A stretch of 64,000 bases of DNA from a virus (taxonomy: Duplodnaviria > Heunggongvirae > Uroviricota > Caudoviricetes): IMG/VR virus record IMGVR_UViG_2654587772_000002; one strand, given 5' to 3'. The notes beneath the pieces are model-generated. The model was not told the DNA's origin and searched no databases. It saw only the letters and a program-made list of their open reading frames with translations. Position 1 is the stretch's first letter. Every line of letters begins with the position of its first letter. Of this stretch, positions 33,035 through 61,970 are shown in pieces. The position numbers and the translations under genes were made by a program.

Positions 33035-33400
33035 TTATGCTGCCTCTTTAATGTTGGCGGCTATCCATGCCGCCGTGTGCTGTTTAACCTGGTCCAGATC
33101 GATGTATGTGCCAACATATTGACTCAAGTCCTGCAACGTACCGATAAATGCATCGGTGCTCTGATCGACGAATTTATCAGCCAGGAAATCAGCAACCAGT
33201 TTTGGCACACCATCATGTACCGAAGGTTGTTTTTCCTCGCCACTACCGCCGCCGGACGCGCCGTACCCCATCTGTTGCATGATCTGGTCAATTTCATCGC
33301 TGATATCCAGCAACTCCATGCCACTCGCGGTAGCCGCTTTGGACATCAGAGCATCCAACTTATCGCTGAGATCCATTAACTCAATAGCTGATAGTGTCAT
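33035..33400 (-). CDS. ddrA: DdrA-like protein (121 aa)
   Basis: Size/position; overlaps darA stop. Confidence 0.55.
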   Translation of the reverse strand: MTLSAIELMDLSDKLDALMSKAATASGMELLDISDEIDQIMQQMGYGASGGGSGEEKQPSVHDGVPKLVADFLADKFVDQSTDAFIGTLQDLSQYVGTYIDLDQVKQHTAAWIAANIKEAA

Positions 33401-35316
33401 GCCGCTACCCCCGCTTTCTGGATTGCTACCAGCAGATCAGCCAGGTGGCGAGCTGCGCCGTTAACCAGCTCTTCGTTTTCCTCAAAACGTCCGGCAGCCT
33501 GAAGGGCTGCAATCGCTTCCCGGACATTGCCCCGGGCGTTACGGATCTCCGCCATGTCAGTGCTTTGTATATCCATCACGTTATTGAGATATTCAATGGC
33601 TTTATTAGCCTCTGCATCTGCTTCGCTAACCGTTTCATCAGGCTGTGCCGGGGCCGGTTCTGGCTGAGTAATCTCACCGACTTCGGCCTGCAATGCATTG
33701 ATCATGCTCTGCACCATTTTCTCGGTGCCAGCGCCCCCAGGAAACGCAATATTGGGGAAAGTTTTTTGAAACTGAGTTTTCAGCATTACGCGGAACTCGT
33801 CTGGTGAGCTGGTGGCCAGCTCCAGAGCTTTTTGTGCATATTTGCCAAACGGACCATTAGTAAGTGTCTTCGCCAGGAAGTCGAAAGAATCCTCGCGAGG
33901 CAATAACTTCAGGTCGTACTCACTCATTTGCTGATCAGAAAGCGGGGTATCGTAAGTAGCAATGCCGTAGCGTGCATATTCATAATACGGGTCACCTTCA
34001 TCAGGGCGCGGCAGAATTGCTTTGTTACCTTCAGGTATTGCGCCAGGGGCCGCCGGACGCATTTGCAGGGCATATCGATATGCACCTACAGAGACTTCTG
34101 GTTCAGGCGAAGAGCTACCGGTATCCTCCGCTGGTTCAGGCTCGACGTTTTCCGGTTTATGTTCTTCTGGTTGGACCAGGTATTCCGATACATTACCCGC
34201 TTTATAGGCTTTAAACAGCTTGCCGATCGCATCTGCCATGTCCACACCCTGTATGGATTTAGCCTTGATCATGTATACGCTGCCATCCGGATCGGTTAAC
34301 TGGATATACCCTTCGCCGCCCCCAATGAATTGCTTCATTGATGCACCATTACTGAGCGTCACTTCCCCGTCCATATGCATACGATTTTTGATACTGGCAA
34401 GGCGATCCGTCAGCGCGCGAGAGTGCCCACCAGTCATCCCCGCTGGAGCAATGGTATCGCGCCCACCAGTGCGATTGAGCTGATCAATCTCCGTCTGCAA
34501 ACGCTCATTCTCTTCATAAAGAGAATCCGCTTCCGATGCAACAGCGTTAATTTTCTGCTCCAGATCTGCCTTCTGCCCTTCTACCGCTGCCACCTGATCC
34601 GCGAGGTCGCTCATGGCATCCTCTTTCTGGTCACTGTCAGCCTGTAGTTGGGTTATTTCATCAACAAGGGCTTTTTTCTTCTTCTGCGCACGCTGGAATT
34701 TTGCCGAGTTTTTCTCTGCAAGGTTGGCAAGTTTCATGGTGACCTGCGCCAGCGTCATATCACGTCCACTCATCGGAGCAACGGTGTGAGTAACGTCTTT
34801 TTTATTCAGTAAGAACTGGAAAGCAACCAGCGTATCGCTATTGGTGATCCGGTTTTCCGCTGTCGGGCTATGAAACAGAATGCTGATAGTCTGACCATCA
34901 CTGAGCGGAATAATGGCTGGCAGGACTGGCAGCCCGTTAACGTTACGTGCCCGGCCAATTTCAGCGCCGCCGATCGCGCGCGCGCCGCTCTGGGCCACAT
35001 CCCCCGTTTTATCACTCCCCGCAGAGATTCCGGTACCATTCAGCTTCTGGTTCAATGCCCGGACAAATGCCTGCATGGTCCGGTGTAACTGCAAACGAGT
35101 AGAACTAATCGCCTCCAATAAATCCGTAGCACACCAGTGGATCGGCGTGTCATAGAAGAACGTTGCCTCGATTTCCTCCAGGGTGTTGGATTCCGTCATC
35201 AGATAGCGGTCCTGACCAGCCATTAATGCGCGATATTCATCATCAGTCACCGGCGGGGGAAGCACGTCAAGCCCCGGCTTAATCGTCACCCCTTTATTGA
35301 TATTGAACTGTTCCAT
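33397..35316 (-). CDS. darA: DarA-like antirestriction/head protein (639 aa)
   Basis: Size/position in lydA-lydB-hdf-darA-ddrA-ddrB arrangement. Confidence 0.6.
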   Translation of the reverse strand: MEQFNINKGVTIKPGLDVLPPPVTDDEYRALMAGQDRYLMTESNTLEEIEATFFYDTPIHWCATDLLEAISSTRLQLHRTMQAFVRALNQKLNGTGISAGSDKTGDVAQSGARAIGGAEIGRARNVNGLPVLPAIIPLSDGQTISILFHSPTAENRITNSDTLVAFQFLLNKKDVTHTVAPMSGRDMTLAQVTMKLANLAEKNSAKFQRAQKKKKALVDEITQLQADSDQKEDAMSDLADQVAAVEGQKADLEQKINAVASEADSLYEENERLQTEIDQLNRTGGRDTIAPAGMTGGHSRALTDRLASIKNRMHMDGEVTLSNGASMKQFIGGGEGYIQLTDPDGSVYMIKAKSIQGVDMADAIGKLFKAYKAGNVSEYLVQPEEHKPENVEPEPAEDTGSSSPEPEVSVGAYRYALQMRPAAPGAIPEGNKAILPRPDEGDPYYEYARYGIATYDTPLSDQQMSEYDLKLLPREDSFDFLAKTLTNGPFGKYAQKALELATSSPDEFRVMLKTQFQKTFPNIAFPGGAGTEKMVQSMINALQAEVGEITQPEPAPAQPDETVSEADAEANKAIEYLNNVMDIQSTDMAEIRNARGNVREAIAALQAAGRFEENEELVNGAARHLADLLVAIQKAGVAA

Positions 35317-35929: not shown

Positions 35930-36350
35930 CCTGTGCGAGATTTATTACGTAACTTCTGCGGATTTGCTGAGTAACAGGGAAAATCCGATACAACGGGTTA
36001 ATGAACGAGTCGCCATGCGTAACCATGACGTTGAAATGCCACAGTCGCTCTCCTTTACCCATATATTCAGTGGGTATGTACAACCATTCACTGTTTTCGC
36101 CCTGTTCAGCCGACGTCAGACAACGTTGTTCGCCTTCAATCACTGTCGTCGGCTTCTGAACATCGCGGATCCAATATCTGACCGTTGCGCCGCGCAAAAA
36201 CGGGAATTTAGACCGGTATTTGAACGGCACCCGAATGAAACCCGGTTTAATTTCCACATCACCAAGTTCTAAATGCGTGATGTCCTTGCGTTTTAGCAAA
36301 TAGCGATCGGCTAAGGCTAACGCAAGAACGCATACACCCCAGCCAATCAT
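35907..36350 (-). CDS. lydB: LydB-like antiholin (147 aa)
   Basis: Coupled downstream of holin gene. Confidence 0.55.
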   Translation of the reverse strand: MIGWGVCVLALALADRYLLKRKDITHLELGDVEIKPGFIRVPFKYRSKFPFLRGATVRYWIRDVQKPTTVIEGEQRCLTSAEQGENSEWLYIPTEYMGKGERLWHFNVMVTHGDSFINPLYRIFPVTQQIRRSYVINLAQDVSDDEK

Positions 36351-36676
36351 TTCCCACCTCCCTTTTTCACCAAACTTGTAAGAACATTCAGAATGCTATC
36401 GATATTCACTCGTTTCATCCCTGAAATCACCTCATGACCGTTATTGCTGGCTATCGTTACCATTAAGTACGTAATTGATAACTCCCAGCCTTCGTGTTGC
36501 CCCAATAGGTACGCCACCGCGCCAGCTGTCACTGCAACAAAGATCTCCGTAACCAATCCCAACAAGTTGCCAGACTGGCGACCATCTCGGACATCCATCA
36601 GGAACGTGCCTATCCCACCAATTACTGAAAGCAGGAGCGCAATAGCAACTGGAGCTAATTCCTGTGTGTCAAGCAC
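36347..36676 (-). CDS. lydA: LydA-like holin (109 aa)
   Basis: Multiple TM segments in 109-aa protein, SD GAGGGA upstream. Confidence 0.65.
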   Translation of the reverse strand: MLDTQELAPVAIALLLSVIGGIGTFLMDVRDGRQSGNLLGLVTEIFVAVTAGAVAYLLGQHEGWELSITYLMVTIASNNGHEVISGMKRVNIDSILNVLTSLVKKGGGK

Positions 36677-36778
36677 AAGTTCCCTCCTACGTTGTCAGGA
36701 GGTAATGGTATGCAAAGTAACTTCTCAACCGGTCATGTTACTTGACATCCTCCACGTCCTTTAGAGCGTGGAGGATGT

Positions 36779-37600
36779 GTGCGCCCAGCATGGGCGCGAT
36801 CTTGGAGGTGAAAGCCCTCCCGCGAGCTGACCACAGCGAGCGAAAGGAAGTGCAACTGCGTGAGGGCGGCTAGGCGTGGGGAGGAAGCACGGAATGAACC
36901 CGTGAGCCGATGAACAAGAATCGGATATGAGGCGCGATGGAGCAAGGCGAGCAGGCACATCACTGCGAAGCTTTCGTGACAAAGTCGCGTAGATCCGACG
37001 GTTGTGCGGGGAAGGATCGCGTTCTTACCTGGGGAGTTCTCGCCTCATGCCTGAAAGGGCAACGTCGTAAGACGGAGCGAGAAGTCAGCAGAGGCCGTAG
37101 TAGTCAGGACTCCGACGAAGGGCCGAACGAGAAGGAAAGCCAAAAGATATGACTCTTGACAGGACATTGCGTCAGAAGCCGGGGAAGCCCGGTACGGACC
37201 CGCATGCCGGGTGGTGTGGCAGGGGCGCAGCCTTGTGCTCCCCCCTATGCCGATCAAGCAGAACATTGTGCTGGGCCTCTGACGCATCTCCTTGATGGTC
37301 TTGGCATCGTGCTTAAGTGGATTGGTGTCGTCTCTGATAGGCTCATGGAGGCAGAATGAAACTCAAAAATCCGGGACAGCACGCAAAACAGGCTGCACAA
37401 AAAGCGCAGGTTGCGTAGGAGTGGAATCCCGCTCCCAAAAAATGGTGCAGAAGTTGCGGCAGTGGTCATCCGACGCACTGGAAAATAACAAACCCGCCGT
37501 GACCAGAATCGGAGGCCTGAGGGAGTGACCGTAAAACCGGATAACCCAGGCAGCAAATACCCGCTGGATGAGGCATGGTTCCGGCAGATAATACCGAAAA
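36779..37600 (+). ncRNA. GC-rich non-coding block with group II intron-like 5' end (GTGCGCCCAG), preceded by a perfect hairpin (36746-36777); possibly ORF-less or degenerate intron or other large structured RNA
   Basis: No credible ORF on either strand across ~0.9 kb; 5' end resembles the Ll.LtrB intron start as I recall it; many GNRA-type tetraloop motifs; 3' boundary and domain V not identified. Confidence 0.3.
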
Positions 37601-37674
37601 CCGCCAGACACACTGGATAATCAGTAGAAATAACCCATTAAAATCATTATAATAATTGGGCACATTATTATATT

Positions 37675-38238
37675 ATGCTGAATAATAGAGACATGAATAT
37701 TAATGAACTTAAAGACTGTATTCACTATGAAGTAATCGGTAGCGAGCGTCCTTTCTCCTGGCGAAAGGCAATTGTTCGCGCAATAAAACATAGAAGAGTT
37801 CGTTATTTATTTTGGTGGCGCATAGCCAAATACCTTTTTGATAAAGGCGGATACTGTCGGAAGATTGCGGGGAAAATGGAACGTTTCATTCTTGATAAAT
37901 ATAGTGTAACAGTCCCTTTAACTGTAAATATAGGGAAAGGCTTTGATATTTCTTATCTCAACGGTGTTGTTATCGGTCACAAAGTAACCATTGGTGAAAA
38001 TTGTTCAATAAAACCAGGGGTAACTATTGGGCTACGTGGTGATTTTAATGATATGGATATTGTTATAGGACATAATGTGACCATTGGTTGTAATGCCACC
38101 ATTCTTGGTGGCAAAGTGCGTATAGGAAACAATGTCACAATAGGTGCTCATGCATTGGTATTGCATGATATTCCTGATGATTCAACATTCATCACTAAAT
38201 TTCAGTCTGAAGTTATCTGCTCGTCCTCTTGCACATAA
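37675..38238 (+). CDS. Hexapeptide-repeat (left-handed beta-helix) O-acetyltransferase, CysE/WbbJ-like (187 aa)
   Basis: Tandem hexapeptide repeats ([21 protein letters not shown]...[32 protein letters not shown]); AT-rich. Confidence 0.7.
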
Positions 38239-38819
38239 CCCTGATTCATCAGCTCTGGCCATACGATATCCGGAGCTGTACTGGTGTCAATTCGACTCAC
38301 TAATACTCTGTATTTTCTCCAGGAATCCAGTTGTGAATTTTCCTCGGTTGTTGCTATTTCAAGATTAACTGCATCCTGCAGAATTGCGATGTTATCTGTT
38401 GCCTCCTGAATCAACCTTGCCTTTTTCTCTTCCGCTTCCCGTATCCGAAACAGTTTTTCTGCTTCCTCATCCTTCACCCAGGATACGCCGTCCCACTTCT
38501 GATACTCCCCTGCTGGCGACAACCAGGTGACATTCTCTGGTAACGGTCCGAGTTCAGAAATAAACAACGCGTCCCCCGATGCCACGTCATAGACCGTTTT
38601 ACCACGATGGTCTTCAACAATAATCCATGATTCATTTTCACTGTTAAAAACTGCCACAAAGCCAGCAGGAATTTCCGGTGGGGCGATATCTGTAGAATTA
38701 GCTGGTAGCCCTGTATGAGGTGGAATATATGCGTCACCTTCACCAATAAACTCATTAGTTCCGGCGAGCAGGTTATAAATTTTTACAGTACGTGATTGTT
38801 CACTCATTCTGAATGCCAT
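38202..38819 (-). CDS. Tail fibre assembly chaperone (Tfa/U-like), 205 aa
   Basis: N-terminus MAFRMSEQ...[42 protein letters not shown] matches the lambda/E. coli Tfa family. Confidence 0.85.
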
Positions 38820-39709
38820 TATGCAAGCCTCACAATATAATTAAATGCGATGTTTTTAACGGTGTTTTCCGAGTTACCAGCAGCGTTAACGGTGATGGTG
38901 TGTCCATGTGAACCAATCGCAACAGAGTGCGTATGAGCGCCAATATCAACTGTATGTGCATGCGCCCCTGCACTTGCAGCGGTGCCTGATACTGAGTGGG
39001 TGTGTGCACCAGAAGAAGGCACAGTTCCATTCCCCACCACAGTGCCGCTTGATGAGCCATCAAGCCAGTCGAAATTCATACCGCCACCATCTGGTCTCCT
39101 TAATGGAACGGTATGAGTATGTGCGCCAGCACTATTTGCAGTACCAGATACATTGTGGGTATGTGCACCTGTGTTATTCGTTGATTTAGTACCGTAATCA
39201 AACGAAGATGTGGTTTTCGTACCCAAATCCGTATTGGATGCGCTGGCGCTGTGGGTGTGCGATTTAATGCCATCCTGTTCCAGAGACAATACGTCCCGAC
39301 CACTGGCGGGTTTGCCCTTGATTGTCCAGCCACGCATATCCGGGATCACGCCTGACGGATAAGCGGCTGCAAGTTTCGGGTATGCAGATTTGTCAAAAGT
39401 CTGTCCCTGCATCAGGGCGTAACCAGACGGCACAGTATCTGATGGCCACGGATGCGGAACACCAACAGGAAGGACCTCAATATCCCCGGAACCATCAAAC
39501 GAAACGTTATTAATTTTACGGGCTGTTTTCAGCTTTGTAGCCGTTGAGGCATTGCCGGACAGCTCACCAGAAATGCCACCAACAACTGTTAGATCACCAG
39601 TTATTGTGCCGCCTGAACTTTCCAGTTTTTTAGCAACATCACTCTTAATAGAGTCGATTTCTTTTTTCAGATTAGTTATATCTGCTGGTATCGTTGTCAC
39701 TGTTGCCAT
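38819..39709 (-). CDS. Distal tail fibre / receptor-binding protein with HxH repeats (296 aa)
   Basis: Repeated GAHTHxV and SGAHTH motifs typical of fibre tips; coupled to tfa. Confidence 0.7.
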
Positions 39710-39718
39710 ATTAATTCC

Positions 39719-39997
39719 TTACGCCCATTCCCGCAGCGGTTGTTCTAATTGAACTTCAAAACCATCAAACATTTGTTGTTTCAAACTGTTGTTTAAAATA
39801 CGAACATTAACGAAGAAGCCATCATTTTTAATCACTGTTGGTTCTTCGTTCTCGCCGTTTGGTATTTCGGTATATGTAACACCTACAACATCAAGAAGAA
39901 TGTTGTTTTGCAGCTCTTCATTATCGTGCCAGGATATACTCTCTAAAAAAGAGTCGTATTCTGCCCTGTCTCTGAATTTCAACGTGATATCTTTCAT
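39719..39997 (-). CDS. Small protein (92 aa) coupled to S, possible fibre chaperone
   Basis: ATG overlaps S stop (TAATG). Confidence 0.35.
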   Translation of the reverse strand: MKDITLKFRDRAEYDSFLESISWHDNEELQNNILLDVVGVTYTEIPNGENEEPTVIKNDGFFVNVRILNNSLKQQMFDGFEVQLEQPLREWA

Positions 39998-42897
39998 TAA
40001 ATAACCTCAGCCATTTGTTGGTCTGTTAATGCTTTATGCCATATTCTGAAATTTCTGATATGACCAAATAAATGACGTAACCCTGCTGTAGTCTGGCCTC
40101 CAATACGGATGGTTGCAGAGTTCTGAATATAGGACCATGTCGTCTTTGTTTCGCTGGATATGCGCCCGTTACTTACTGAGCACGTAGACTGATCTGATTT
40201 TACACGCATCCCCATAACCATTTTTTCAAGCAATGCGTTTTCGTTTACCCGTCTGTTAGCTCCTCCAATATCGCAATAAGGAAATCCGTCGTAATCTGCT
40301 GAAGAACCGAAGCCAAGAATAATAGCCGCTCCGGTTTGATGACCGCCGGTATCAAAAACACGTGGCGCTGCATTTGGCGTTTTATACCAGTTCTTATGTA
40401 CCTCACAAAGAACCGTAAAAGGAAGATTATAAAGATTATTATTAATTGGAACTGTAACTATATCGCTTGCGCGGGTAGCCGCCGTCGTTCCCGAGATAAT
40501 AAAAGATGATGCACACGAACCATCCTCAACCTGAGGGGTGGACAGATAAATATAGTCTCCAGATATGGTTGCTCCGCCCTGCTTAGGAGAATACTGTATC
40601 TGAGATCCTATTTTTAACTCATCATCAATTGCCTGGATTGTTGCCTCTGCAAAAATCCATCCGGTAGCTTCGTCCTTTCTGACTCTCGCTGTAATCCTTG
40701 AGGCCGCGCCACCTGTCATATTAATTTCAAGCGTTTGTGTATCAATATATGCATCACCAAGAAAAGTTGTTGCACTACCGTCATATTTATCAAAGCGGAT
40801 ACGTAACCTTACCTGTCGTTCTGTTTTAAAACGACATGAGGTTGTCACGTACTTGTTATCGCCTGAAACATCAACTGACTTTGTAGCAGCAATTGATGCC
40901 ATATTAATGGCTGACGTTTGCCCAATCAGAGAATCGTTACAGACAAACTTTCCATAGGTAAAACCAAAACTATCCGTCCCGGTTTCGGGAACATCCATAT
41001 TTGACGAGCGCCCCCAACTGGCAGGGTTTTCCGAATTGAGCATGTAGTTTGTTCGTTGTCCCTCAATAAGCAGACCATCACGTTCAAATCGTGGCTCGTC
41101 AATGGCAGCCTCTGTCAGCACACCAGATTTATTTATATAGGTTGCTTTCGATGCGCGTTTAAACTTAACAACCTTGTCGCCAGGCATTGTTATTTCGTCG
41201 TCGCCAATAACAATCTTTTTATATGATGGAGAAAAGCCCGCAATCATATCCAGCGAATCGTTAAACGGTATCCACACATCTGGCAGCGGTTGAATAATCT
41301 TCCTGGCATCCTCCAGTGACAATGCTTCGACATCCGAAGCTGTTAAAGAAATATCTGCCGAACCGTCAAATGAAACGTTGTTAATCATCCGTGCTGTTTT
41401 TAATTTCGTTGCGGTGTCGGCGTTCCCCATCAGTGCGCCGGTGATCCCGCCGTTGAAAGTCTGGCGTGCACTCCATGTGTTAGCCGTGCTCAACAGGGGG
41501 ATCTTTTCACCGCTTGTGCCGAGTTCTCTTAAACCAAGGTATTGGATAACAGCAAGGACGCTTGTTTTGGACAGAATATCGCGACCGACTGACGTTAAGT
41601 CAGTCTGAGAAACAGTGTCTGTACCGGTAAAGTACGGCAGTTTATTTGCGCCTGTAGCAAGACCAGCAAGCGCGGTTAAAGTTGCATCCAGAGGCTGTTT
41701 GCCTGCCAGCGCATTTGTCATTGTTGTCGCAAAGTTCGGGTCATTACCAAGTGCTGCGGCAAGCTCATTCAGGGTATCAAGAGCTTCTGGTGATGAACCA
41801 ACCAATGCGGATATGGCAGCTCTTACATAAGCAGTCGTAGCAATCTGCGTATTATTTGTGCCCTGCGCAGCCGTAGGCGCAGTAGGGACTCCCGTTAATG
41901 CAGGGCTTGCCAAAGGCGCTTTGAGGGCTAGGGCATTGTTGATAGTTGTGCTGAAATTCGGGTCGTTATTGATCGCAGCAGCTATTTCTTTAAGCGTATC
42001 CAGTGTGCCAGGTGCACCGTTGATAAGTGCCGTTATAGCTGACTTAACAAAGGCTGTATTTGCGATCTGCGTGCTATTTGTACCTTGCGCTGCCGTCGGC
42101 GCGGTTGGCGTTCCTGTCAGACTCGGGCTTTCTATTGGCGCTTTGGTATCAGCAAGACCTTTTACAGACTTAACGGCTTTAGGGGTAGCCGCCATTGTTT
42201 CGCTGTCGCTGTTAGTTTCGCTACTGAGCTGAACTAATCCCTTTTGCGTTGTGCTTGCATCCTGTGCCGTATACTTGCTTTTCGCCAGATCGTAGGCTTT
42301 TTTAGCTGCCAGCGAACTTGCAGCAACATCACTTCTGCTACTGGTTACAGAGTCTGAAATATCAATGCCGATCGTGCGGTTAATACGCTCGGATGTATCA
42401 ATCATCTCCTGGGTAATGGCTGATACGCCAGCAGGGATATTCACCGTACAAACAAGCAGCTCTCCATCTCCTAACTGATATGAATCGGTATAGGTTCTGG
42501 CAACAAATTCAGCCGCATGAATATGTGACGCGGTATTAACCTGATAGGTATCCTCTCCAAGGAGGTATCTTCCCTTCAGCACAATTGCATATTTCTTGCC
42601 TTCACTAAGTGCAAGAGAAATATCCTTACGGTGCCGAATAGTTACCTGGTAGAATTCACCAATATCCACTGACGCAGCGCCAGCAGTTTTATCACCATCC
42701 ACTGAGGTGATTAACAGGTTCATACCACCGCCAGGCTTCGGCAGGAAACCGGCATAAAACCCAGGATCAACAATTCCCCTGAATTTTCGGTTTAGCGCGG
42801 CTGACAGATATGGTTCGTGGTATTGCACATCAGCCACCAGAGCCAGTGACTCGGGCGATGGGTAAGTAACTGATGTAACAACTGTAACGTCATTCAT
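39997..42897 (-). CDS. Tail fibre protein S-like (start taken at MNDVTVVTSVTYP; ORF track extends to 42984)
   Basis: Tandem ~50-aa repeats (…APTAAQGTN.TQIA.TA.V…LDTL.E.AAA..NDPNF.TT…) typical of P1/Mu/lambda side tail fibres. Confidence 0.75.
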   Translation of the reverse strand: MNDVTVVTSVTYPSPESLALVADVQYHEPYLSAALNRKFRGIVDPGFYAGFLPKPGGGMNLLITSVDGDKTAGAASVDIGEFYQVTIRHRKDISLALSEGKKYAIVLKGRYLLGEDTYQVNTASHIHAAEFVARTYTDSYQLGDGELLVCTVNIPAGVSAITQEMIDTSERINRTIGIDISDSVTSSRSDVAASSLAAKKAYDLAKSKYTAQDASTTQKGLVQLSSETNSDSETMAATPKAVKSVKGLADTKAPIESPSLTGTPTAPTAAQGTNSTQIANTAFVKSAITALINGAPGTLDTLKEIAAAINNDPNFSTTINNALALKAPLASPALTGVPTAPTAAQGTNNTQIATTAYVRAAISALVGSSPEALDTLNELAAALGNDPNFATTMTNALAGKQPLDATLTALAGLATGANKLPYFTGTDTVSQTDLTSVGRDILSKTSVLAVIQYLGLRELGTSGEKIPLLSTANTWSARQTFNGGITGALMGNADTATKLKTARMINNVSFDGSADISLTASDVEALSLEDARKIIQPLPDVWIPFNDSLDMIAGFSPSYKKIVIGDDEITMPGDKVVKFKRASKATYINKSGVLTEAAIDEPRFERDGLLIEGQRTNYMLNSENPASWGRSSNMDVPETGTDSFGFTYGKFVCNDSLIGQTSAINMASIAATKSVDVSGDNKYVTTSCRFKTERQVRLRIRFDKYDGSATTFLGDAYIDTQTLEINMTGGAASRITARVRKDEATGWIFAEATIQAIDDELKIGSQIQYSPKQGGATISGDYIYLSTPQVEDGSCASSFIISGTTAATRASDIVTVPINNNLYNLPFTVLCEVHKNWYKTPNAAPRVFDTGGHQTGAAIILGFGSSADYDGFPYCDIGGANRRVNENALLEKMVMGMRVKSDQSTCSVSNGRISSETKTTWSYIQNSATIRIGGQTTAGLRHLFGHIRNFRIWHKALTDQQMAEVI

Positions 42898-42908
42898 CAA
42901 GCATATCC

Positions 42909-43343
42909 TTATGCTATAGTCGTGTTGATGGCCATAACTGCGGTATATGTTTTTCCCACATACAGCGAGTCTTCCTGAACACAAATAATTGCGATGGGCT
43001 TATTCTCGTTATCCAGAACAACCAGAGTGTTGAATGGATAGTTTTTCCCTTCCTGCAACTGGCTTTGATCAAGGTCCATTCGGACAGTAATTATCCCGCC
43101 AGAGTAGGTTGGGACGAGGTTGATGGTGCAAAATTGACTGGTCAGTTCTGCCAACTCGAAAGTCTTTGGCAGTTCTCCAATGTCATAAGTACCATCTTCA
43201 TTTTTGGTAACCAGCGAACTGGTGCCGAAAACGGCCTTGCTGATTAAAAATCGAGAGCCTTTGTTAATGGACGATTCAGCGCGTCGCTGATAGTAATAAT
43301 CCAACAACTGACTCTTATAGAGATTTGTTGAGACGTCAGACAT
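42909..43343 (-). CDS. Tail fibre-associated structural protein R-like (144 aa)
   Basis: Position upstream of S. Confidence 0.45.
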   Translation of the reverse strand: MSDVSTNLYKSQLLDYYYQRRAESSINKGSRFLISKAVFGTSSLVTKNEDGTYDIGELPKTFELAELTSQFCTINLVPTYSGGIITVRMDLDQSQLQEGKNYPFNTLVVLDNENKPIAIICVQEDSLYVGKTYTAVMAINTTIA

Positions 43344-43421
43344 GATTTTCCCTAATCAATGTTGTGAAGCCTCATTGTAAGAGAAGTAACTTGTCACCCC
43401 GCCCTGCGGACGGGGTAATTG

Positions 43422-52597: not shown

Positions 52598-52783
52598 TTA
52601 AAGCCCGTCTTTGCAGAGACTAGTTGCTGTAGCGGTAAGTTGTGAAACAGGAATGTTAGGGCTGTCCCGTTTCTGAAGATACCCGGCGCTTAGTGTGGAC
52701 TGATGCTCTGCTGCGCTCGCTGGCGTACCAGCGGCAACCAGCCAGACTACTGCGGACAGAATAACAGCACATAATTTACGCAT
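52598..52783 (-). pseudogene. lom: lom fragment: first ~37 codons of a Lom/Ail-family outer membrane protein fused to unrelated AT-rich sequence
   Basis: MRKLCAVILSAV...AAEHQSTLSAGYL matches lambda Lom N-terminus, then diverges and terminates at 61 aa. Confidence 0.7.
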
Positions 52784-52850
52784 AATTACCTCTCGCTTTT
52801 CTGCAATAAAAAAGGCGTCATTTCTGACGCCCGTATTGGGGTTATAAAAT

Positions 52851-55800
52851 TCAGCTGATACTGATGCCTGCGGTGGCTTTCTTCATCACCACAACCAGCA
52901 AATCGCTGATACTTGCTGTGGGATACCAGCCATTTACCCACCATGCTGATACCGAAAACTCCAGTGTCATTACGCCACTGCCTGCAGGCATATCAATAAC
53001 ACCCGTGTAAATCAGAGTATTATCCAGAGCCGTTCGGTTATAAATTTCAGCCCCGTTTTTCTTCACTATCAGGCGGCATGACGAATAAGTATCGCTATTC
53101 TCCCGTTCATGTCTGGCACCGCTGAAAGCCACCGCCGGGATAACAATTTGCCGGTCAAACGGCTGATCGTCATAAACCCTGACGGTAATGGTCCCTGATG
53201 GCCACCGTTCCGGTGCACGGGAGTCACGGGGGAAAGCTTTGCCCACTGTTTTAACGAGATCGCCTTCAATCTGGTTCGCGGACAGTTTTCCCAGAACCCG
53301 GCAGTTCTCGTTAATCGTGACGTTGTTGAGCGTCCCGGAGTTCGCATTCACGTTACCGCTGATATCGGCATTTTTTGCCGTCAGCCGCCCGTCCGGTGTC
53401 AGGGAAAATGCCGGAGGATTACCGCCGCTGGTAATGGTGGGAGCCGTCAGATATTTCAGGAACACTTCATTCATAAATATCTGATCGCCCTGACCAACAA
53501 ACATCGGCTTTGTGTTGCCATTCGCAGGATTAATCATCGCAATCCTGTCCGCCGCCAGCAGCACCTGACTCTGCATACCGTCAGGGGTATTCTCAATACC
53601 GGCACCAATACCCGCGATATAAAGGCGTCCGTCCTGCATCTGCTGCAGCTTCACAGCCCACATGCTGTTCAGGTTATTATTTGTATCAACCTGAACCTTC
53701 TGTATCTGCTGAATTGCCGCACTCTGGTCTTCCAGTTTCTTATTGACGGTCTGCGTGATTTCATTGCTGACATCCGTAATGGACGTCCTGATTTCAGCCA
53801 GGTCAGGCGCAAGCTGACCGTTATCAATCTGCGTCCACAGCTCCTGAGCCAGATGGCTTTTCCCTATCTCTCCTTTGAAAAAATCCAGATAGCCGGATGC
53901 ATCATCACTCGGCTGGCCAACAGCCTCCACAAATGCCGATTTGCCAACGGTGTTCACACTGCGGATGTAAAAATAATAATCATGGCCCGGTTTGATATTG
54001 ATACTGGCGGCTATCCAGTACAGCGCCGTGCCAAGATAGCGGGCTGTGGTTTCAACCTGCCTGATATCGGTAATCCGCTTTTCCGAGAACCAGAACTCAA
54101 ACTGTACCGTCGGGTCATAAATGGCAAGATGCGGCGTGGCGGTTATCTGAAAATAGCCCGGCGTCAGCTCAATCCTCGACGGTGCTGCCGGTGCGGCAAT
54201 CCGGAACGATACCGACGCCGCATCGCCCTGCTGCCCCACGCATTTACCGCCCGGACTGTCAGCCTGTAGTTCCCCAGCGCCAGTTGCGTGAAGCGGTATG
54301 TGGTTTCCGTCGTCCGGGCCGTGCTGACCAGCCGCTCACTGCCGTCGTCCGCTGTTACGGTCAGACGGAGCAGGAAGCTCACGCCCTTCACCACCTTCGG
54401 TGTGTCCCATCGCGCCAGCACCTGATATTCCCCGCTGTCTGCAGTGACTTCTGCGGTCAGGTGCTGCACCGCTGGCGGCGTGACACCATTCACCGTGCCA
54501 CTCTGTTCGCCGTCAAAGTGCGCCCCGTTATCCACGATGGCCTCTTTTTCCGGCACATGCTGCACGGCGGTGATGGCATACGTGCCGTCGTCGTTCTCAC
54601 GGATACTCACGCAGCGGAACAGGCGCTGGCGCAGCGTCGGCAGCTTCAGCCCCCATACGCTGTATTCAGCAACACCCTCAGGAACACGGCTCACTTTTAC
54701 CTTCACGCCGTCGTTGACGGACTGAACCTCCACGCTGACCGGATTGCCACTTCCGTCAACCAGGCTTATCAGCGTGGTACCGGAGGATGGCAGCGTGATT
54801 TCACGGTCGAGCGTCAGCGTCCGGGTCTGGCTGTTCACCGCCAGCACACGACCACCGGTGCTGATACCGGCATAGTCATCATCGCAGATTTCAATAACAT
54901 CGCCCGGTACATGGCGAAGCCCTTCTGCGCCGACGCTGAAATCCACGGTCTGCGTCTCCAGCAGCTCCGTTTTAATCAGCCACAGCCCGGCGCGGTGTGC
55001 CTGCCCCCGGCTGGTACAGCCAAAGGCATCCATCTTCGTAACATTACGACCGTAACGGGCAATGGCCTGCGTATCTTCAACAAGCTCTGTCGCCGTCTCC
55101 CAGCCGTTGTCCGGGTCAATCCAGTTCACCTCAACGGCATTATGGCGGTCTTTCAGGGCGCTGAAGCTGTAGCGGAACGGCGCGCCATCATCCGGCATCA
55201 CCACATTACTGCGGTTATAGGTCCACGCCTTATCCGACGGTCGGTCCTGCACGAACGTCAGCGTCTGCCCGTTCCATACCGGCATACAGCGCATCGCCGA
55301 GCAGAAATCACTGAGAACGTCCCACGCCTTGCGCTGTGTGGTCAGGTACGCATTACAGGTGATGCGCGGCTCCGTGCCGCCAAAGCCGTCCGGCACTGAC
55401 TGGTCGCAGTACTGGCCGATGACATACAGCGCCCATTTGTCCACATCCGCCGCACCAAGACGTTTCCCCATGCCGTAGCGCGGATGGGTCAGCATATCCC
55501 ACAGACACCAGGCCATGTTGTTGCTGTATGCTGGCTTAAACGTTCCGTCCCAGATACCGCTGTATTGTCGCGTCTGCGGGTTATAGTTCGACGGCACCTG
55601 CAGAATGCGCCCGCGAAGATGATAATTACGACTCACCTGCTGGCTGCCGAACTGCTCCGAGTCCACCTGTACGCCGACCAGTGCCGTGTTCGGGTAGCAC
55701 TGTTTCACATCGATGATTTCGGTGTATGACGACCAGAGCGTTTTGTTCTGCAGCTGGTCTGTGGTGCTGTCCGGCGTCATCCTGCGCATCCGGATATTAA

Positions 55801-56329
55801 ACGGGCGCGGCGGCAGGTTATCCACCACCACCGAGGCCAGATACTGCGAGGTGGTTTTGCCTTTAATGGTGATGTCTTTTTCCGTCACCCAGCCACCGTT
55901 ACGCTGTATCTGAACCAGCAGGCGGACTTCCGACGGATTCCGGTCCCCCTTTGAGGTGGTTTCCACCAGTGCCTGCACACCGAAGGTAAAGCGCAGACGG
56001 TCGATGTTTGCAGACGTGATGGTCCGGGTAATCGGCGTGTCGTACTTCACTTCCGTACCCAGCACCGTCTCGGAGCCGGAGGATTCAAACCCCTCCGGCG
56101 GTGTCTGCTCCTGCTCACCGGCACGGAACACCACCGTGACACCGGAGATGTTGGTATTCCCCTCAGTGTCCAGCACCGGCGTACTGTTCAGCAGCACGCT
56201 TTTTAATCCATCCACCGGACCTTCAACCGGCCCTTCGCTGATGGCATCGATCACACTCAGCAACTGCGTGGACTTCAGGTTGTCCTTCGCTTCGCGCGGG
56301 GTATGCCCCTTACTGCTTCCTTTACTCAT
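52851..56329 (-). pseudogene. J: Lambda-type central tail fibre / host specificity protein J, split by a frameshift near 54164-54239
   Basis: Two consecutive ORFs (721 + 462 aa) both near-identical in pattern to lambda gpJ; break at ...AVNAWG / QQGD... Confidence 0.9.
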
Positions 56330-56389
56330 TCCTCACGCTCCATAAATGACAAAACCGCCCGCAGGCGGTTTCACATAAAACATTTTGCA

Positions 56390-57061
56390 TCAGCGACCAA
56401 TCACCACAACCTGACCACCGTCCCCTTCGTCTGCCGTGCTGATCTCCTGAGAAACCACGCGTGACCCCACGCGCATTTCCCCGTACAGAACAGGCAGAAC
56501 ATTGCCCTGGGCAACCATGTTATCCAGTGAGGAGAAATAGGTGTTCTGCTTACCGTTATCCGTTGTCTGTGTACGGGGAGTTCTGGCTTTCGGTGCCAGC
56601 ATCTGCGCCACACCACCGAGGACCATACTGGCACCGAGAGAAAACAGGATGCCGGTCATACCACCGGCCCCAATGGCTGCCCCCCATGCTGCAAGGGTGG
56701 CTCCGGCGGTAAAGAATGATCCGGCAATGGCGGCAGCCCCCAGGACAATCTGGAATACGCCACCTGACTTGGCCCCGGCGACTCTGGGAACAATATGAAT
56801 CACAGCGCCATCAGGCAGAGTCTCATGTAACTGCGCCGTTAACCCGGACGTGCTGACGTCCCGCCCGGCAATCCGTACCTGATACCAGCCGTCGCTCAGT
56901 TTCTGACGAAACGCCGGGAGCTGTGTGGCCAGTGCCCGGATGGCTTCAGCCCCCGTTTTCACACGAAGGTCGATGCGGCGACCAAATCGTTGTAAATCCC
57001 CGTAAAGGCAGATGCGCGCCATGCCCGGTGACGCCAGAGGGAGTGTGTGCGTCGCTGCCAT
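56390..57061 (-). CDS. I: Lambda-type tail assembly protein I (223 aa)
   Basis: Recognised lambda gpI-like sequence and size. Confidence 0.9.
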   Translation of the reverse strand: MAATHTLPLASPGMARICLYGDLQRFGRRIDLRVKTGAEAIRALATQLPAFRQKLSDGWYQVRIAGRDVSTSGLTAQLHETLPDGAVIHIVPRVAGAKSGGVFQIVLGAAAIAGSFFTAGATLAAWGAAIGAGGMTGILFSLGASMVLGGVAQMLAPKARTPRTQTTDNGKQNTYFSSLDNMVAQGNVLPVLYGEMRVGSRVVSQEISTADEGDGGQVVVIGR

Positions 57062-57702
57062 TTGTCGGTGTACCTCTCTCGTTTGCTCAGTTGTTCAGGA
57101 ATATGGTGCAGCAGCTCACCGTCACCACAGTAAATGGCGGCATGATTCGGCACCGATGAACCAAAACAGCACAGCAGCACATCGCCCGGCTGCGCCGCTG
57201 ACAACGGCACCTGATACAGCCCTGTGGCCTCCAGATTATCCAGATAGAGATTCTGACCGTGACGCCACCAGTCATCCCCGCGATGAAAATCCGGCATCTC
57301 AATCCCCGCCAGATGATAAGCATCCCGGAACAGCGTGTAACAGTCCGTCACCCCGTGCTCAAAGCGCCGCCCGGTGAGATGCGGCACACAGCGGAACTTA
57401 TGAATCGCCCCCCGGCAGACCAGCCACCACGGCAAATCACTCTGCACCTGCAGCCGCCGGTCAGCCTCACTCAGCCAGGGCAGACCACCGGGGTGGCTGT
57501 GGACCAGCGCCACAATCTCACCCTGCATTTCTGCCTGCAGCCAGTCCTCCGGAGCCATCCGGAAATAATCCTCCGGCTCACCGGAAATATTCACGCCGGG
57601 AAAATATCTTTCCCCCTCCGGCGTGCTTACCACGAAGCCGCACGACTCCGCTGGCGCACATCGCCGGGCGTGCGCCAGAATCGCTGATTCTGTCTGTGTC
57701 AT
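56959..57702 (-). CDS. K: Lambda-type tail assembly protein K (NlpC/P60-JAB-like)
   Basis: MTQTESAILAHARRCAPAESCGFVVSTPEGERYF... as in lambda gpK. Confidence 0.9.
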   Translation of the reverse strand: MTQTESAILAHARRCAPAESCGFVVSTPEGERYFPGVNISGEPEDYFRMAPEDWLQAEMQGEIVALVHSHPGGLPWLSEADRRLQVQSDLPWWLVCRGAIHKFRCVPHLTGRRFEHGVTDCYTLFRDAYHLAGIEMPDFHRGDDWWRHGQNLYLDNLEATGLYQVPLSAAQPGDVLLCCFGSSVPNHAAIYCGDGELLHHIPEQLSKRERYTDKWQRRTHSLWRHRAWRASAFTGIYNDLVAASTFV

Positions 57703-57707
57703 GGGAT

Positions 57708-58406
57708 TTACTGCGAAAGTTTGTTAATGGAAAGGAAGCCGCCAAAGTTGCCGACGTTATTGCGAAACTTACAGCCACTCAGGCATTTGCTGCATTTATC
57801 CTTCGTGATATCGGACGTCGGCTGGTCATATTCATCCGCGACCGCCGGACCGCTATAACCGCACTCATCGCCGCGATAGGTCCAGGTGCAGGTGTTGGCC
57901 AGCATGATACGTCCCGGAAAAACAGCGCCATCCGTTTCAGTCGGCGTGGACAGTACAAAAGAGGCACTGACCGCGCTCAGTTCGCTGCACTGCTCGATGC
58001 GCCAGCGGCTGATCACCTCCTGCTCCGGATCGGCTTCGCTGTTTCCGTTGACGAAGTTCACCGCATCCAGAAAGCGGGCGTAAACCTTACGCCGGACCAC
58101 CGTTCCGCCGACCAGACTCTGCAGATCTTCCGCCATCCCGGTGATCATGCCGTGCAGGTTAGAGACCGTCAGTGTCGGACGGGCAGCACTGCCCTTGCCG
58201 TTCATCTCAAATCCACTCCCCTGAATGGGATAGGCCTGATACTGCCGACTCTGCCAGGTGACAGACTCACCTTTTTCGTTCTGCTCATTACAGAAAAAGT
58301 AGCGATCCCCGTCTACCTCTGTCAGGTCGATTTCCCAGAGCACCACGCTGGCAGACTGCTCCGCACGAATGCATTCATTCAGCGTTTCCTGTTGTATGTC
58401 CTGCAT
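57708..58406 (-). CDS. L: Lambda-type minor tail protein L (232 aa)
   Basis: Recognised gpL sequence incl. C-terminal Cys cluster. Confidence 0.9.
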   Translation of the reverse strand: MQDIQQETLNECIRAEQSASVVLWEIDLTEVDGDRYFFCNEQNEKGESVTWQSRQYQAYPIQGSGFEMNGKGSAARPTLTVSNLHGMITGMAEDLQSLVGGTVVRRKVYARFLDAVNFVNGNSEADPEQEVISRWRIEQCSELSAVSASFVLSTPTETDGAVFPGRIMLANTCTWTYRGDECGYSGPAVADEYDQPTSDITKDKCSKCLSGCKFRNNVGNFGGFLSINKLSQ

Positions 58407-58744
58407 CAGATCACCACTTCGTCAAACTGACACGAAAAATCGGTATAGGTGATATGTTCTGTCGCTGACCACGTTCGACACACCACTCTGATTTTTCTGT
58501 TAATACCCGGCGGGCGCCAAAAAAAAGATTTATAGCCTTCATGCCGGGCTAAAAATTTTTCAAATGAATCACGTTCATTCGCCTCAACTTTGAAATCACA
58601 GGTGAAAACGCGCAGAGAATGATTAAGTCCATTTGGACTTCGTTGCTCATAACCATCGCCAAATCTTACAGTTTTTATCGATGGTTTATTTTCTGTTTTC
58701 ATTCCATCCTCTGGTAACCAGTGAAATTCTTCCGTATTAGCCAC
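58406..58744 (-). CDS. M: Lambda-type minor tail protein M (112 aa)
   Basis: [10 protein letters not shown]... motif as gpM. Confidence 0.85.
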
Positions 58745-61700
58745 TTAACATTCCCCCATCACGTCGCATATTTAACAGATTGCCCTGCACCCGCTGATCA
58801 ACCATCCCCATAAGTGCTTTTATTGCCTGAGGGCCAATCTCTCCATTCTGGCCGTCATTTTGAATAGTGATTTGGTATACAGGGGCATAGGTAATATCTC
58901 CGCCTCCATTACCACTTTTACTATTAATAGCTCTGACACCAAGAGAACCATCGGAAGTTCGTGTTAATGGCATAATGGCTTCCGGACCAGCCTCACCAAA
59001 AACACCAGCCCCTCTTGCAAAAGCAAAAAATTGCGGGGAATCATAAATACCGTTCGAATACGTGTTCAATGACGGAGACTCATAAACACCGCCCTTTGCA
59101 TTCGGAATAAATTTACTAATAGCACTCCCGATAGTTCCTAAAATCCCCCCAGAAGAACTGTTACTAATGCTGTCGAAAATCCCAGTAATTGAAGCCTTTA
59201 ATGCTATTCGACTAAGATCCGAAATCACGGAAGTAGCGAAAGAACGAAAATTTGCCTTGCCTGTCGTGACAAAATCACCCAGCGCATCGGTCATTCCATC
59301 AAACATCTGAGTCGTGGTTGATTTTATCTGCTCACTGATATCCTTAGTGTCATCCAGCCAGTTATTGAATCCCTGGGAGGCACCACTAACCCAGTCTCCT
59401 GCCTGAATATCGAGCTGCTCGTTTTTCTGTCTGACAATTTCTTTTTCTCGTTCCAGAGCATCATTCAGAGCCTGCATTTTCTCCTGAAAAACATGATTTG
59501 ACATCCCACGGGATTTATCTGCATAGTCACGTTCAAGTTGCAGACGCTGATTGTTATATTCACGTTCAATCCGCAGTAATTCCTGCTGGCGTTGCTGATT
59601 TTTATCGCCAACCCCATAACCAGCAATCTGAATATCATACCCCTGTTGACGATTATCAATCGAAGCCTGCAATGAATCACGCCATGCAGCTATTTCGGCG
59701 GATTCCTTGATTAGCCTGTTATTTTTTTCAATCGCAACATTTTTCTCCATCAACGCGGTTATTTCTTCCAGGTGTAAGAGAAGCGATTTCTGATCCTGGG
59801 TTAATTTCGATGACGGTCGTGACTCCAGGTCGGCAATCTGCTGACGCCACTTAACCAGTTCCTGTTCAGAGGAACTTAATTTAACGGTTAATTCAGTTTG
59901 TGAACTTAGTAACGCATTCTGTTGATTCAGATGATCAATCATTCGTTGGGCAGCATCATCCGAATAACCTTTCGCCTTTGGTTGCTTTGGATCTTTATAA
60001 CGCTCATTTATTTGAGCGATAAAATTATTATATTCTTCCTTTGAATACTGACTCTTTAGCTTTTCCAGTTTTGCAAGTTCACTAGCTCTCTGCTGCTCCC
60101 GGGTCTGATATTGTTTTGAAAAGGCATCTGCTCTCTGTCTGAGTTCAATTCCTTCCTGTTGTCGCTTGTTGTAATCGTTTATTGATGAATTTAGGACGTC
60201 CTGAGCAATTTTTTCTGCTTGAAGTACGCCCAATTGCTGCTTTAATCGTGCCAGCCTTTTATTTTGAGCTCCGCCATCTCCAATGCCACCTAACCCGAAA
60301 ACTCCGGGTCGGGTATTTTTTTCTATTTCATCAATTTGACGGAGAACATCTGAGATTTTTTGATCAAGGGAGGCCTCACGGCCAATGTCCAGCATGGAAT
60401 CCCATGCCCATTTTGCGGAGTCTGCGACAGCTTTCCATGCAGTCTCAAGATAACCAAGATTTTCTTTAATCTGGTTGGTGCGCTGGATCATTGAGGATGA
60501 GTATTCTTCTGTCGCAATGCGGGCGGCCTCCTGCTGGTTCCCTTCATCCTGTAGCGCCTTAATCTGGTTATAAGTCGCAAGTGTCAGAAAATGGTACTGA
60601 TCATTAAGTTTTGATATGGCACTGACAGGATCCTTTGCAATTTCATTGAAGTCATTAACCAGTTGTTCGGTTGATATTCCTGTTACTTCGCTCGTTTTTA
60701 CTATCGCTGTCGTCACTTGCTCCAGCGAACTGCTCGCTACCTTTCCCGAACGCACAAGCTGATTTAATACTGCCGCCGCAGCACCAGTTGTCGAATCAGC
60801 CGCATTCCCGGCACGTTGAGCTATATCGCCCAATTGCCCGCTGGTTGTCCCCAACTGATTTCCGGTAAGAATAAGAGATTTATTAAATTCGTCCTGCTCC
60901 TGAGAGCCTTTATAGTAAGCCAGTCCTAAGACCCCAACGGCTGCTGCGGCCAGGGTAAAAGGATTAATTAATCCCAGCACATAAGAACCTACACCTTTGA
61001 TCGCCGGGCCAATCCCACCGAACATATCTTTTAGCTGGCCGCCCTGCTGCATTAACACCATAAATGGCGACTGACCAGTGGACAACCCAACAACAATATC
61101 CGTCATTTGTGCAGGCAACATGCGCATAGCAAAAGCCGTTTGTTTTGCCGACATTCCGGTTTTGCTTAATTGTGATTGAGTAACCTCAAGCTCACTCCGC
61201 ATAGCACGAAGTTTTCCAGAAAGCTCCTCATACATTTCAGGAGAAAGCATCCCCTTAGCTTTTGCTTCATTGAGCTGTTTCTGTTGTTCTACCAGACGAT
61301 TAAAAGCAGTTCCGACAGGATCAAGTTGAGCAATCAGACGTTGCAAAGCAACAACCTGTTCATCATGCGCTTTTGCTGCTTCTCGCTCTGCCTGAGCCTC
61401 TCCGGTAAGCTCTCGCCGTGTTTCCTGTATTTTTCGGCTATAATTCTCAAACTGAGAACCATTTATTTTCCCGGATGCAAACGCAGCATTAAGTTCATCA
61501 TGCTGTTGTTCAAGATTTCTTAGCGCCGCAGCCAGAGGGTCGATCTTGTCCAGCATTCTTTGAAAGGCCTGAGCCTGCGCTTCCTGCTGGGCGGCAGCAA
61601 GTTTTCCGGCCTTCTCGGCTTCTCTCTGCGCTTGCGCAACCCCGCTCAATTCCTCTGTGGTTTCATTAAGTTTACGGACAAGAAATTCATATTCTTCTTT

Positions 61701-61970
61701 ATCAATAAGCCCTTTATCGAAAAATTTCTTTAATTCAGAATAGCGTCGACCGACAGTATCAATTGCGGCACCAACTGGATCAATAGCTGCTTTTAATTTT
61801 GCGAGCGCGTTCTTCTCATCTTCTGTTGCCTTAGTCACTTTCCCTGCGCTATTTGCAGCAGTTTCCCCAGCCTGCGTCATTTTGACTAATGAGGAGGTCA
61901 GATTGTCAGCATTATTTTTCGCTCCAGTGCTATCAATAATTATTGCGAGACGCGAGGTTTGCTCTGCCAT
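58737..61970 (-). CDS. H: Tail tape measure protein (gpH-like), 1077 aa
   Basis: Long coiled-coil-rich ORF between G/T and M. Confidence 0.85.

Follow-up and report, generated by a model that had tools for sequence, protein, structure and literature searches.

The window analysed here, a 64,000-nucleotide stretch of DNA from a virus of the Caudoviricetes (IMG/VR record IMGVR_UViG_2654587772_000002), consists of P1-like DNA at positions 1–52673 and of lambdoid DNA from 52674 on. Its P1-like part carries the tail-fibre locus that is the subject of this study. Four consecutive open reading frames (ORFs) on one strand encode the main tail fibre S, a protein of 92 amino acids, a second fibre of 296 amino acids (F2) and a tail-fibre assembly protein (Tfa). 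These genes and the features found within S are as follows.

39997..42897, minus strand: gene S, chimeric main tail fibre, 966 amino acids (blastp against P1 S, pSCEC128 S, U2501 S, pMB9880_3 and Tritos Stf; Pfam Phage_fiber_2)
41698..42141, minus strand: tandem repeats of S, two units of 74 residues, amino acids 253–400 (50 of 74 residues identical; b1/b2 in the P1 annotation)
41524..41549, minus strand: orphan cixR inside codons 450–458 of S (26 of 26 bases as in P1 cixR)
41344..41496, minus strand: fibre joint motif in S, amino acids 468–518 (63% identical to amino acids 29–79 of F2 in a blastp comparison of S with F2)
40000..41292, minus strand: C-terminal module of S, amino acids 536–966 (GTA head-spike-fibre domain)
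39719..39997, minus strand: gene for the 92-residue protein (phrog_1361, E = 1.6e-35)
38819..39709, minus strand: second fibre F2, 296 amino acids (Pfam Collar and Phage_fiber; PDB 2XGF)
38202..38819, minus strand: lambda-type tail-fibre assembly protein Tfa, 205 amino acids (Pfam Caudo_TAP, E = 2.3e-39; phrog_105, E = 8.5e-94)

The mechanically called ORF of S spans 39997–42984, beginning at a TTG at 42984 and overlapping R. An earlier reading of the letters alone (hereafter the sequence-only reading) had taken 42984 as the boundary of S; the ORF is present, but the real start is almost certainly the P1-type ATG at 42897 (MNDVTVV...), which gives a protein of 966 residues, the annotated length of the S protein of the P1-like plasmid U2501. 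Residues 1–518 are 95.6% identical to P1 S and comprise the constant part of the fibre (Sc) and the first 65 residues of Sv, and residues 536–966 form a foreign C-terminal module that is not derived from P1. Tandem repeats are indeed present in S, as two units of 74 residues rather than the units of about 50 residues described in the sequence-only reading; they are visible in the protein only and were not detected by Tandem Repeats Finder on the DNA. The protein also contains two Phage_fiber_2 repeats of about 40 residues. The breakpoints of the homology of S to P1 and to pSCEC128 fall at the joint motif, which on these alignments is a recombination joint; modular fibre exchange at this 'TATKLKTAR' joint is already known. 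The C-terminal module matches the NCBIfam model GTA_spike_fiber (NF048003; 53.6 bits against a cut-off of 36, amino acids 610–810 of S), the head spike fibre of RcGTA (PDB 6TB9; E = 3.3e-6) and phrog_1419 (E = 4e-235). In a profile of 31 distinct homologues its base (amino acids 536–615) and its last 30 or so residues are conserved and amino acids 856–935 are hypervariable, the pattern expected of a receptor-binding domain, and the module is probably the first of two such domains at this locus.

The ATG of the 92-residue gene shares one base with the stop codon of S (TAATG) and is preceded by GAGG, in keeping with the proposed coupling of the two genes. A scan of IMG/VR yielded 57 loci with this protein family, and at all 57 the gene stands directly after a fibre gene that ends in a homologue of the S module, the C-terminal 430 or so residues of the fibre being 38–98% identical to it. 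The same order of module and gene is found in the T5-like phage L6jm, the T1-like phages tunus and PeterMerian, the lambdoid Tritos and the P2-like phage-plasmid pMB9880_3. On the strength of this synteny, the S module and the 92-residue protein are taken as pair 1. At 46 of the 54 evaluable viral loci, mostly lambdoid prophages, no F2 gene is present and the 92-residue gene occupies the place of lambda tfa, which indicates that the protein is primarily a partner of the tip of the first fibre. It is most likely an assembly factor of the C-terminal module of S, probably acting as an assembly chaperone or as a joint protein. It is predicted (pLDDT 83) to fold into a small alpha/beta sandwich. 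A conserved hydrophobic protein of 97 amino acids (MDISPLLHALCAVAAQ...) is encoded directly after the 92-residue gene at 46 lambdoid-prophage loci in IMG/VR; in Tritos and in a prophage of Escherichia coli ST2747 it is encoded after the second fibre. Many of the IMG/VR contigs stop about 309 nt past the 92-residue gene.

The ORF of F2 is intact, with a Shine–Dalgarno sequence (AGGA) 6 nt ahead of its ATG. The protein is made up of an N-terminal peptide (amino acids 1–40), the joint motif (amino acids 29–79) and a tip of the T4 gp37 type with collar, needle and head (amino acids 78–296). This tip can be aligned over the full length of the receptor-binding tip of T4 gp37 as solved by crystallography (PDB 2XGF; E = 1.8e-82), all seven HxH metal-binding motifs of which are kept. 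At the N-terminus a motif, M-x-T-x-T-x-IP-x-DI-x-x-LK, is common to the second-fibre genes of U2501, pMB9880_3, Tritos, L6jm and the T1-like phages. The start of tfa overlaps the stop of F2 by one base (TAATG), an arrangement that signifies translational coupling. Judged by their domains and order, F2 and Tfa are a classic gp37/Stf-type tip with its Tfa-class chaperone, pair 2. An HxH-repeat fibre tip coupled to a lambda-type Tfa had been recognized in the sequence-only reading, and its description of two fibre/chaperone pairs in one orientation is borne out by the four minus-strand ORFs, the pairings being given by the synteny at the 57 loci and by the Caudo_TAP gene that comes after the gp37-like tip. 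An Rfam match to the small RNA IS009 in tfa (38278–38476, minus strand) was dismissed, as it scored 79 bits against a gathering score of 117; its probable cause is sequence resembling tfa in the seed of the model and not an RNA gene.

P1 alternates between two fibre tips by inversion. Homology of the window to P1, at 98%, extends to position 36736, just beyond lydA and the late promoter LPdar, resumes at 41393 and continues without gaps through R, 16 and bplA. The equivalent of 36736–41393 is annotated in P1 as lydC, cin, cixL, Sv′, U′, U and most of Sv; with the homology broken there, all of these are gone from the window, which holds instead, from left to right, a group II intron fragment, an acetyltransferase gene on the plus strand and, on the minus strand, tfa, F2, the 92-residue gene and distal S. 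The intron fragment and the acetyltransferase gene thus take the place of cin between lydA and the fibre genes. A tblastn search with P1 Cin against the whole 64 kb returned only noise (E > 1), no inverted self-matches were found in 30–50 kb, and a search for cix tolerating 7 mismatches in 26 yielded a single site. This site, which the sequence-only reading had not seen and for which no partner was found, is the exact cixR in S, where the constant fibre part Sc meets Sv. It is a leftover of Cin-driven inversion, and pSCEC128, Ro157c2YLVW and pMB9880_3, relatives that likewise lack cin, carry such an orphan site too. Every ORF for a fibre or chaperone lies on the minus strand, and the acetyltransferase gene is the only one there on the plus strand. 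As cin, a partner cix and an opposite-strand Sv′/U′ cassette are all missing, the locus is fixed, as had been proposed, and neither a cin-like gene nor inverted repeats were found just outside the region in which the sequence-only reading had noted their absence. No recombinase is annotated in a further 29 kb inspected in a copy of the element in E. coli ST2747. Taken together, this is probably a frozen two-fibre locus that lacks cin and whose pairs are both functional.

The closest relative, U2501 (NZ_KU980950), has the same gene order, with 99% identity throughout S, 96–98% in the 92-residue protein and 94% in the first 81 residues of F2. It retains genes for a lydC-like holin and for a cin-like recombinase, the latter with cixL at its end, as well as an exact cixR and inverted repeats of 155 nt; the two-fibre arm of U2501 is in its entirety part of an ordinary invertible C segment. 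The same module in a working cin/cix segment marks the window locus as a frozen derivative. In pPSS-10_3, a closed plasmid of 90.5 kb with about 88% identity at the locus, S, the 92-residue gene, a gp37-tipped F2 of 296 residues, Tfa and the acetyltransferase are all present and adjoin a truncated recombinase pseudogene, a decayed cin. The remainder of the locus resembles a third type of plasmid. Positions 36300–39578 and 41351–43400 of the window are 97–99% identical to pSCEC128-type plasmids (98.7% to pSCEC128 itself for the former, which spans the intron fragment, acetyltransferase, Tfa and gp37-like tip), where the gp37-like tip ends a single S protein of 1181 residues. Between these blocks, 1.77 kb of the window (39579–41350) stands in for 1.24 kb of the pSCEC128-type gene and adds a stop, the 92-residue gene and a new start. 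This 1.77-kb module is 96–98% identical in about a dozen plasmids, both P1-like (U2501 and others) and P2-like phage-plasmids of 48 kb, and the occurrence of the arrangement of S, 92-residue gene and second fibre in other phage-plasmids, at 96–99% identity, means that it is not peculiar to the element in the window. At least 80% of the locus is covered by none of the records in the collections of phages, plasmids and complete E. coli genomes. One of the P2-like plasmids, pMB9880_3 (NZ_CP103765.1, 3649–7884), carries amino acids 400–966 of S at 96% amino-acid identity together with the 92-residue gene, the N-terminus of F2 and a near-exact cixR (one mismatch), with no invertase annotated nearby; on sequence likeness this points to a recent exchange of fibre arms between two phage-plasmid families.

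In the simplest history, an invertible C segment would first have gained the two-fibre arm, and the cin/cixL/Sv′ side would later have been lost, or swapped for the pSCEC128-type block of tip, Tfa, acetyltransferase and intron fragment, with the joint of the swap at the conserved fibre motif. The series lydC–cin–Sv′–U′–U–S is a documented variable region of P1-like phage-plasmids, a replacement by Tfa and a serine acetyltransferase being described for JL22 (PMC9603915). Another P1/P7-like plasmid has a min-type region of multiple inversions (PMC5786510). Many P1-like plasmids are devoid of cin, its loss being a common event.

The likeness to pSCEC128 raises a different explanation for F2, namely that the 296-residue gene and tfa are a displaced relic, an open frame not represented in virions, left when a cassette of S tip, 92-residue gene and second-fibre start cut off a pSCEC128-type tip. 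The tip and Tfa are 95–99% identical to the end of the 1181-residue pSCEC128-type fibre, the joint coincides with a motif at which fibres are known to recombine, the copy in ST2747 has a frameshift (seven T) in the F2 gene, and homologues are flagged as partial by PGAP. We consider this explanation unlikely. Besides its intact ORF with its own ribosome-binding signal and ATG and the retention of all seven HxH motifs, F2 has an intact counterpart of the same length and architecture in pPSS-10_3 (about 88% nucleotide identity), from which it differs by 67 synonymous and 33 non-synonymous changes. The resulting ratio of non-synonymous to synonymous substitution rates (dN/dS) is 0.13 overall, 0.17 in the N-terminal 80 residues and 0.11 in the tip, and F2 is by this measure under purifying selection and no dead remnant. 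The 81 N-terminal residues are, moreover, 90–94% identical to those of complete second-fibre proteins in U2501 and pMB9880_3.

How the two fibres may work together is suggested by the distribution of the N-terminal motif of F2. It is borne by otherwise unrelated second fibres of five phage groups (P1-like phage-plasmids, P2-like phage-plasmids, the lambdoid Tritos, the T5-like L6jm and the T1-like tunus and PeterMerian) and comes directly after the 92-residue gene in every locus examined. In Tritos the order is Stf, a 93-residue protein, a 346-residue fibre, a 97-residue protein and PinR, and in L6jm it is LtfC, a 786-residue LtfA, a 92-residue protein and a 576-residue LtfB with an S74 chaperone domain. 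Since the tail tips and baseplates of these phages are unrelated, the only co-inherited candidates for the binding partner of F2 are the C-terminal module of the first fibre and the 92-residue protein. F2 itself contains only the conserved N-terminal peptide, the joint motif and the gp37-type tip; it shows no similarity to Sc or to any P1 baseplate protein, and its sole likeness to S is the joint motif. Without a virion-attachment domain it could not be an independent fibre of the P1 baseplate, and most likely it hangs on S. The four fibre genes of the R–S–92-residue gene–F2–tfa operon would be expressed late from the promoter LPs. S itself was recombined just after the joint motif onto a portable module with a GTA head-spike-fibre domain; in the proposed model the 92-residue protein would help to fold the tip of S or form its joint, Tfa would fold the gp37-like tip, and F2 would dock by its N-terminal peptide onto the S tip, the 92-residue protein or both. 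Two tips would in that case be displayed together on every one of the six fibres, a lectin-like domain, probably glycan-binding, and a gp37-like tip. For the docking of F2 on S itself the chances appear evenly balanced, and dual receptor binding would be plausible. A second fibre carried by the first has a genetic precedent in the T5-like phage DT57C (PMC4728585; PMC10713586). More tentatively, the S module, the 92-residue protein and the N-terminal peptide of F2 might constitute a portable plug-and-socket set that moves between myoviruses (P1-like, P2-like) and siphoviruses (lambdoid, T1-like, T5-like) and hangs any distal tip on any primary fibre, simultaneous display having replaced Cin alternation in the P1 lineage.

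Both fibres might also be functional with F2 attached independently of S, for example through another baseplate protein, giving two fibre sets instead of branched fibres. Two independent fibre sets are known in some phages (PMC11990801), and the present data show no contact between S and F2. Such attachment is nevertheless improbable in view of the lack of homology of F2 to Sc and the baseplate proteins and of the restricted choice of co-inherited partners; the only conserved part of F2 outside the tip is, furthermore, a peptide of about 17–40 residues that is common to lambdoid, T1-like, T5-like and P2-like second fibres.

Several observations weigh against a functional locus with branched fibres. 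We infer the physical attachment of F2 to S from co-inheritance across unrelated phage backbones. The N-termini of F2 and of DT57C LtfB fail to align and are not homologous, and blastp matched neither S with DT57C LtfA nor F2 with DT57C LtfB; as the DT57C joint is not homologous, the likeness to branched fibres is an analogy of architecture and not one of membership. The 46 of 54 loci with a fibre and a 92-residue gene but no F2 imply that F2 is optional and that the 92-residue protein is not solely an adaptor for F2; its predicted fold has no informative structural neighbour and gives no functional clue. AlphaFold2 run on the single sequence of the C-terminal 450 residues of S gave an unusable model (pLDDT 31). 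The P1-like genome extends past the window, and the scan for an invertase covers the 64 kb and the roughly 29 kb of the ST2747 copy. At 52673/52674 the P1-like DNA abuts a truncated lom (its first 111 nt) and the J, I, K, L and H genes of a lambdoid prophage, the last feature of the window:

52674–64000, minus strand: lambdoid tail cluster, with the tape-measure gene at 58737–61970, L, K, I, J as two ORFs at 52851–56329, and the start of lom

In one ST2747 chromosome assembly, CP007393 (NZ_CP007393.1, 2138779–2159193), P1-like DNA identical to window 28599–50309 lacks 39929–41515 (1587 bp) and has a frameshift in F2, with seven T in place of the six T of the window at codons 15–16. This difference may reflect a decaying element or a wrong assembly, and the composite element may not be a viable phage.

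The lambdoid cluster matches the Rac-site prophage of E. coli ST2747 at 99.97–100% identity, and the junction with lom suggests integration, rearrangement or chimeric assembly. In CP007393, pmgB is cut at 50309 and adjoins a lambdoid stf fragment. The junction of the 1587-bp gap shows GTGCC microhomology and lies 8 nt outside cixR, features on which a Cin-mediated deletion was rejected as its cause. The resident Rac-site prophage (NZ_CP007394.1, 2188057–2192917) encodes an Stf of 791 residues, a 93-residue protein, a 346-residue fibre, a 97-residue protein, a tfa remnant and pinR; the C-terminus of its Stf is 92% identical over 1333 nt to window 39960–41292, a stretch over which plasmid-prophage and chromosome could readily recombine. 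Given the junction and the differences between assemblies, the element could have been integrated into the chromosome or rearranged, or its assembly could be wrong in part. The fibre locus might then be an assembly chimera, with reads of a P1-like plasmid mis-joined to the lambdoid prophage of the same strain, which has this similar 1.3-kb stretch, a reading to which the P1-like/lambdoid joint, the disagreement of two ST2747 assemblies around the locus and the Stf–93-residue–F2–97-residue–pinR order of the prophage lend some colour. For the fibre locus itself such an artefact is very unlikely. The S tip, the 92-residue protein and the F2 N-terminus match the complete circular U2501 and other P1-like plasmids at 96–99%, against only 92% for the Stf tip of the resident prophage, and the closed plasmid pPSS-10_3 independently shows the four-gene order. 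The 92-residue protein is clearly diverged from the 93-residue protein of Tritos, lambdoid-prophage versions in IMG/VR being about 49% identical; DNA homology to the resident prophage ends at window 39960, 38 nt into the 92-residue gene; and every joint is in frame.

Least credible is a Cin-type invertible segment of the usual kind, seen in just one of its orientations, its invertase and second cix lying beyond the region examined, a reading largely refuted for the window: it has in its favour the exact cixR, the segment that surrounds the same module in U2501 and the fact that the window falls short of a whole P1-like genome, but the 64 kb contain no Cin homologue, a second cix was not found even with 7 mismatches in 26 allowed, 30–50 kb is free of inverted repeats, the place of lydC–cin–cixL in P1 and U2501 is filled by the intron fragment and acetyltransferase gene, the further 29 kb of the ST2747 copy have no annotated recombinase, and other cin-less relatives carry an orphan cixR too.

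To the left of the fibre locus the P1-like part contains genes of the pac/c1/cre region, darB, ddrB, darA (33397–35316), hdf, lydB and lydA (36347–36676), and to the right R, 16, bplA, pmgA, sit, pmgB, tub and pmgC. The features that flank the four fibre genes are as follows.

43374..43392, minus strand: late promoter LPs, upstream of R (gap-free mapping from the P1 annotation)
42909..43343, minus strand: gene R, 144 amino acids, P1 tail-fibre structure or assembly protein (inside a block 95.9% identical to P1)
37693..38238, plus strand: hexapeptide-repeat acetyltransferase (LbH, left-handed beta-helix; Pfam Hexapep)
36860–37123, plus strand: group II intron fragment (Rfam group-II-D1D4-3, 95.5 bits; D1D4-1, 46.8 bits)

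The 19-nt LPs differs from that of P1 by one base and is presumed, by analogy with P1, to be the promoter of the operon from R to tfa. The intron fragment sits at the place of P1 lydC and cin within an ORF-poor stretch (36737–37650) and is 98.7% conserved in pSCEC128-type plasmids; neither a reverse-transcriptase ORF nor a match to domain V/VI was found for it. The acetyltransferase gene is convergent with tfa, with an overlap of 37 nt, and accompanies the cassette of gp37-like tip and Tfa in many P1-like plasmids (in synteny in pSCEC128, Ro157c2YLVW and pPSS-10_3). All of its NCBIfam matches (CysE, EpsC, WcaB) are under the cut-off; as a guess, it may be a lysogenic-conversion gene for acetylation of surface glycans. 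Elsewhere in the P1-like part, an island of low GC content at 13000–15000 (GC 0.32–0.35) encodes an EAL-domain protein (13259–13948) and an AraC-type regulator (14185–14919), and genes like these are annotated in further P1-like plasmids.

Comparison with known systems places the locus among variants of the P1/P7 C segment. Like that segment it lies between lydA and R, with the same late promoter, R gene and constant part of S and an exact cixR at the Sc/Sv boundary. Unlike P1, the window has neither cin, cixL and lydC nor Sv′, U′ and U, the tip of S is replaced beyond amino acid 518, and two fibre genes stand on one strand in place of two alternative tips on opposite strands. U2501 differs in that its two-fibre arm is invertible, with cin-like recombinase, cixL and inverted repeats, and in that its F2 carries another tip (365 residues) and another Tfa. 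The pSCEC128, JL22 and Ro157c2YLVW type has in common with the window the orphan cixR, the lack of cin, and the Tfa and acetyltransferase, but has a single S of 1181 residues with a gp37-like tip where the window has S, the 92-residue protein and F2. As in the LtfA/LtfB fibres of DT57C, DT571/2 and the L6jm variant, two fibre genes are consecutive and the N-terminus for virion attachment is on the first only. L6jm, whose type is uncharacterized, has the C-terminal module (42% amino-acid identity), the 92-residue protein (62%) and the second-fibre N-terminal motif in common with the window, whereas the LtfA tip and LtfB N-terminus of DT57C are not homologous to those of the window; the LtfA/LtfB tips also bear C-terminal S74 intramolecular chaperones instead of Tfa and belong to a siphovirus tail tip, not to a myovirus baseplate. 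With T4 gp37 and gp38, and with lambda Stf and Tfa, F2 has in common the collar, the seven HxH iron sites and the head domain, followed by a Caudo_TAP gene; the tip differs from that of T4 gp37 in being borne by a stand-alone protein of 296 residues with a foreign N-terminus of 40 residues and not by a shaft of about 1000 residues.

Branched fibres, modular exchange and loss of cin all have precedents, and current understanding is not overturned by this locus; with the modular layout found in other phages too, it is a modest variant and not a new kind of system. No description of the two-fibre module in P1-like elements was found in the literature, and the same module is present in other deposited plasmids. 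If the proposed docking is true, the socket (S tip and 92-residue protein) and the plug (the peptide of 17–40 residues) could offer a ready means of equipping P1 or lambda particles with additional receptor-binding tips by engineering. As a transducing phage P1 is the classic example, P1-like phage-plasmids spread resistance genes such as mcr-1 and blaCTX-M, and the host range of these elements is set by the tail-fibre locus. The locus described here represents one route to a change of host range, in which an inversion switch has been traded for a fixed fibre that probably displays two tips at once.

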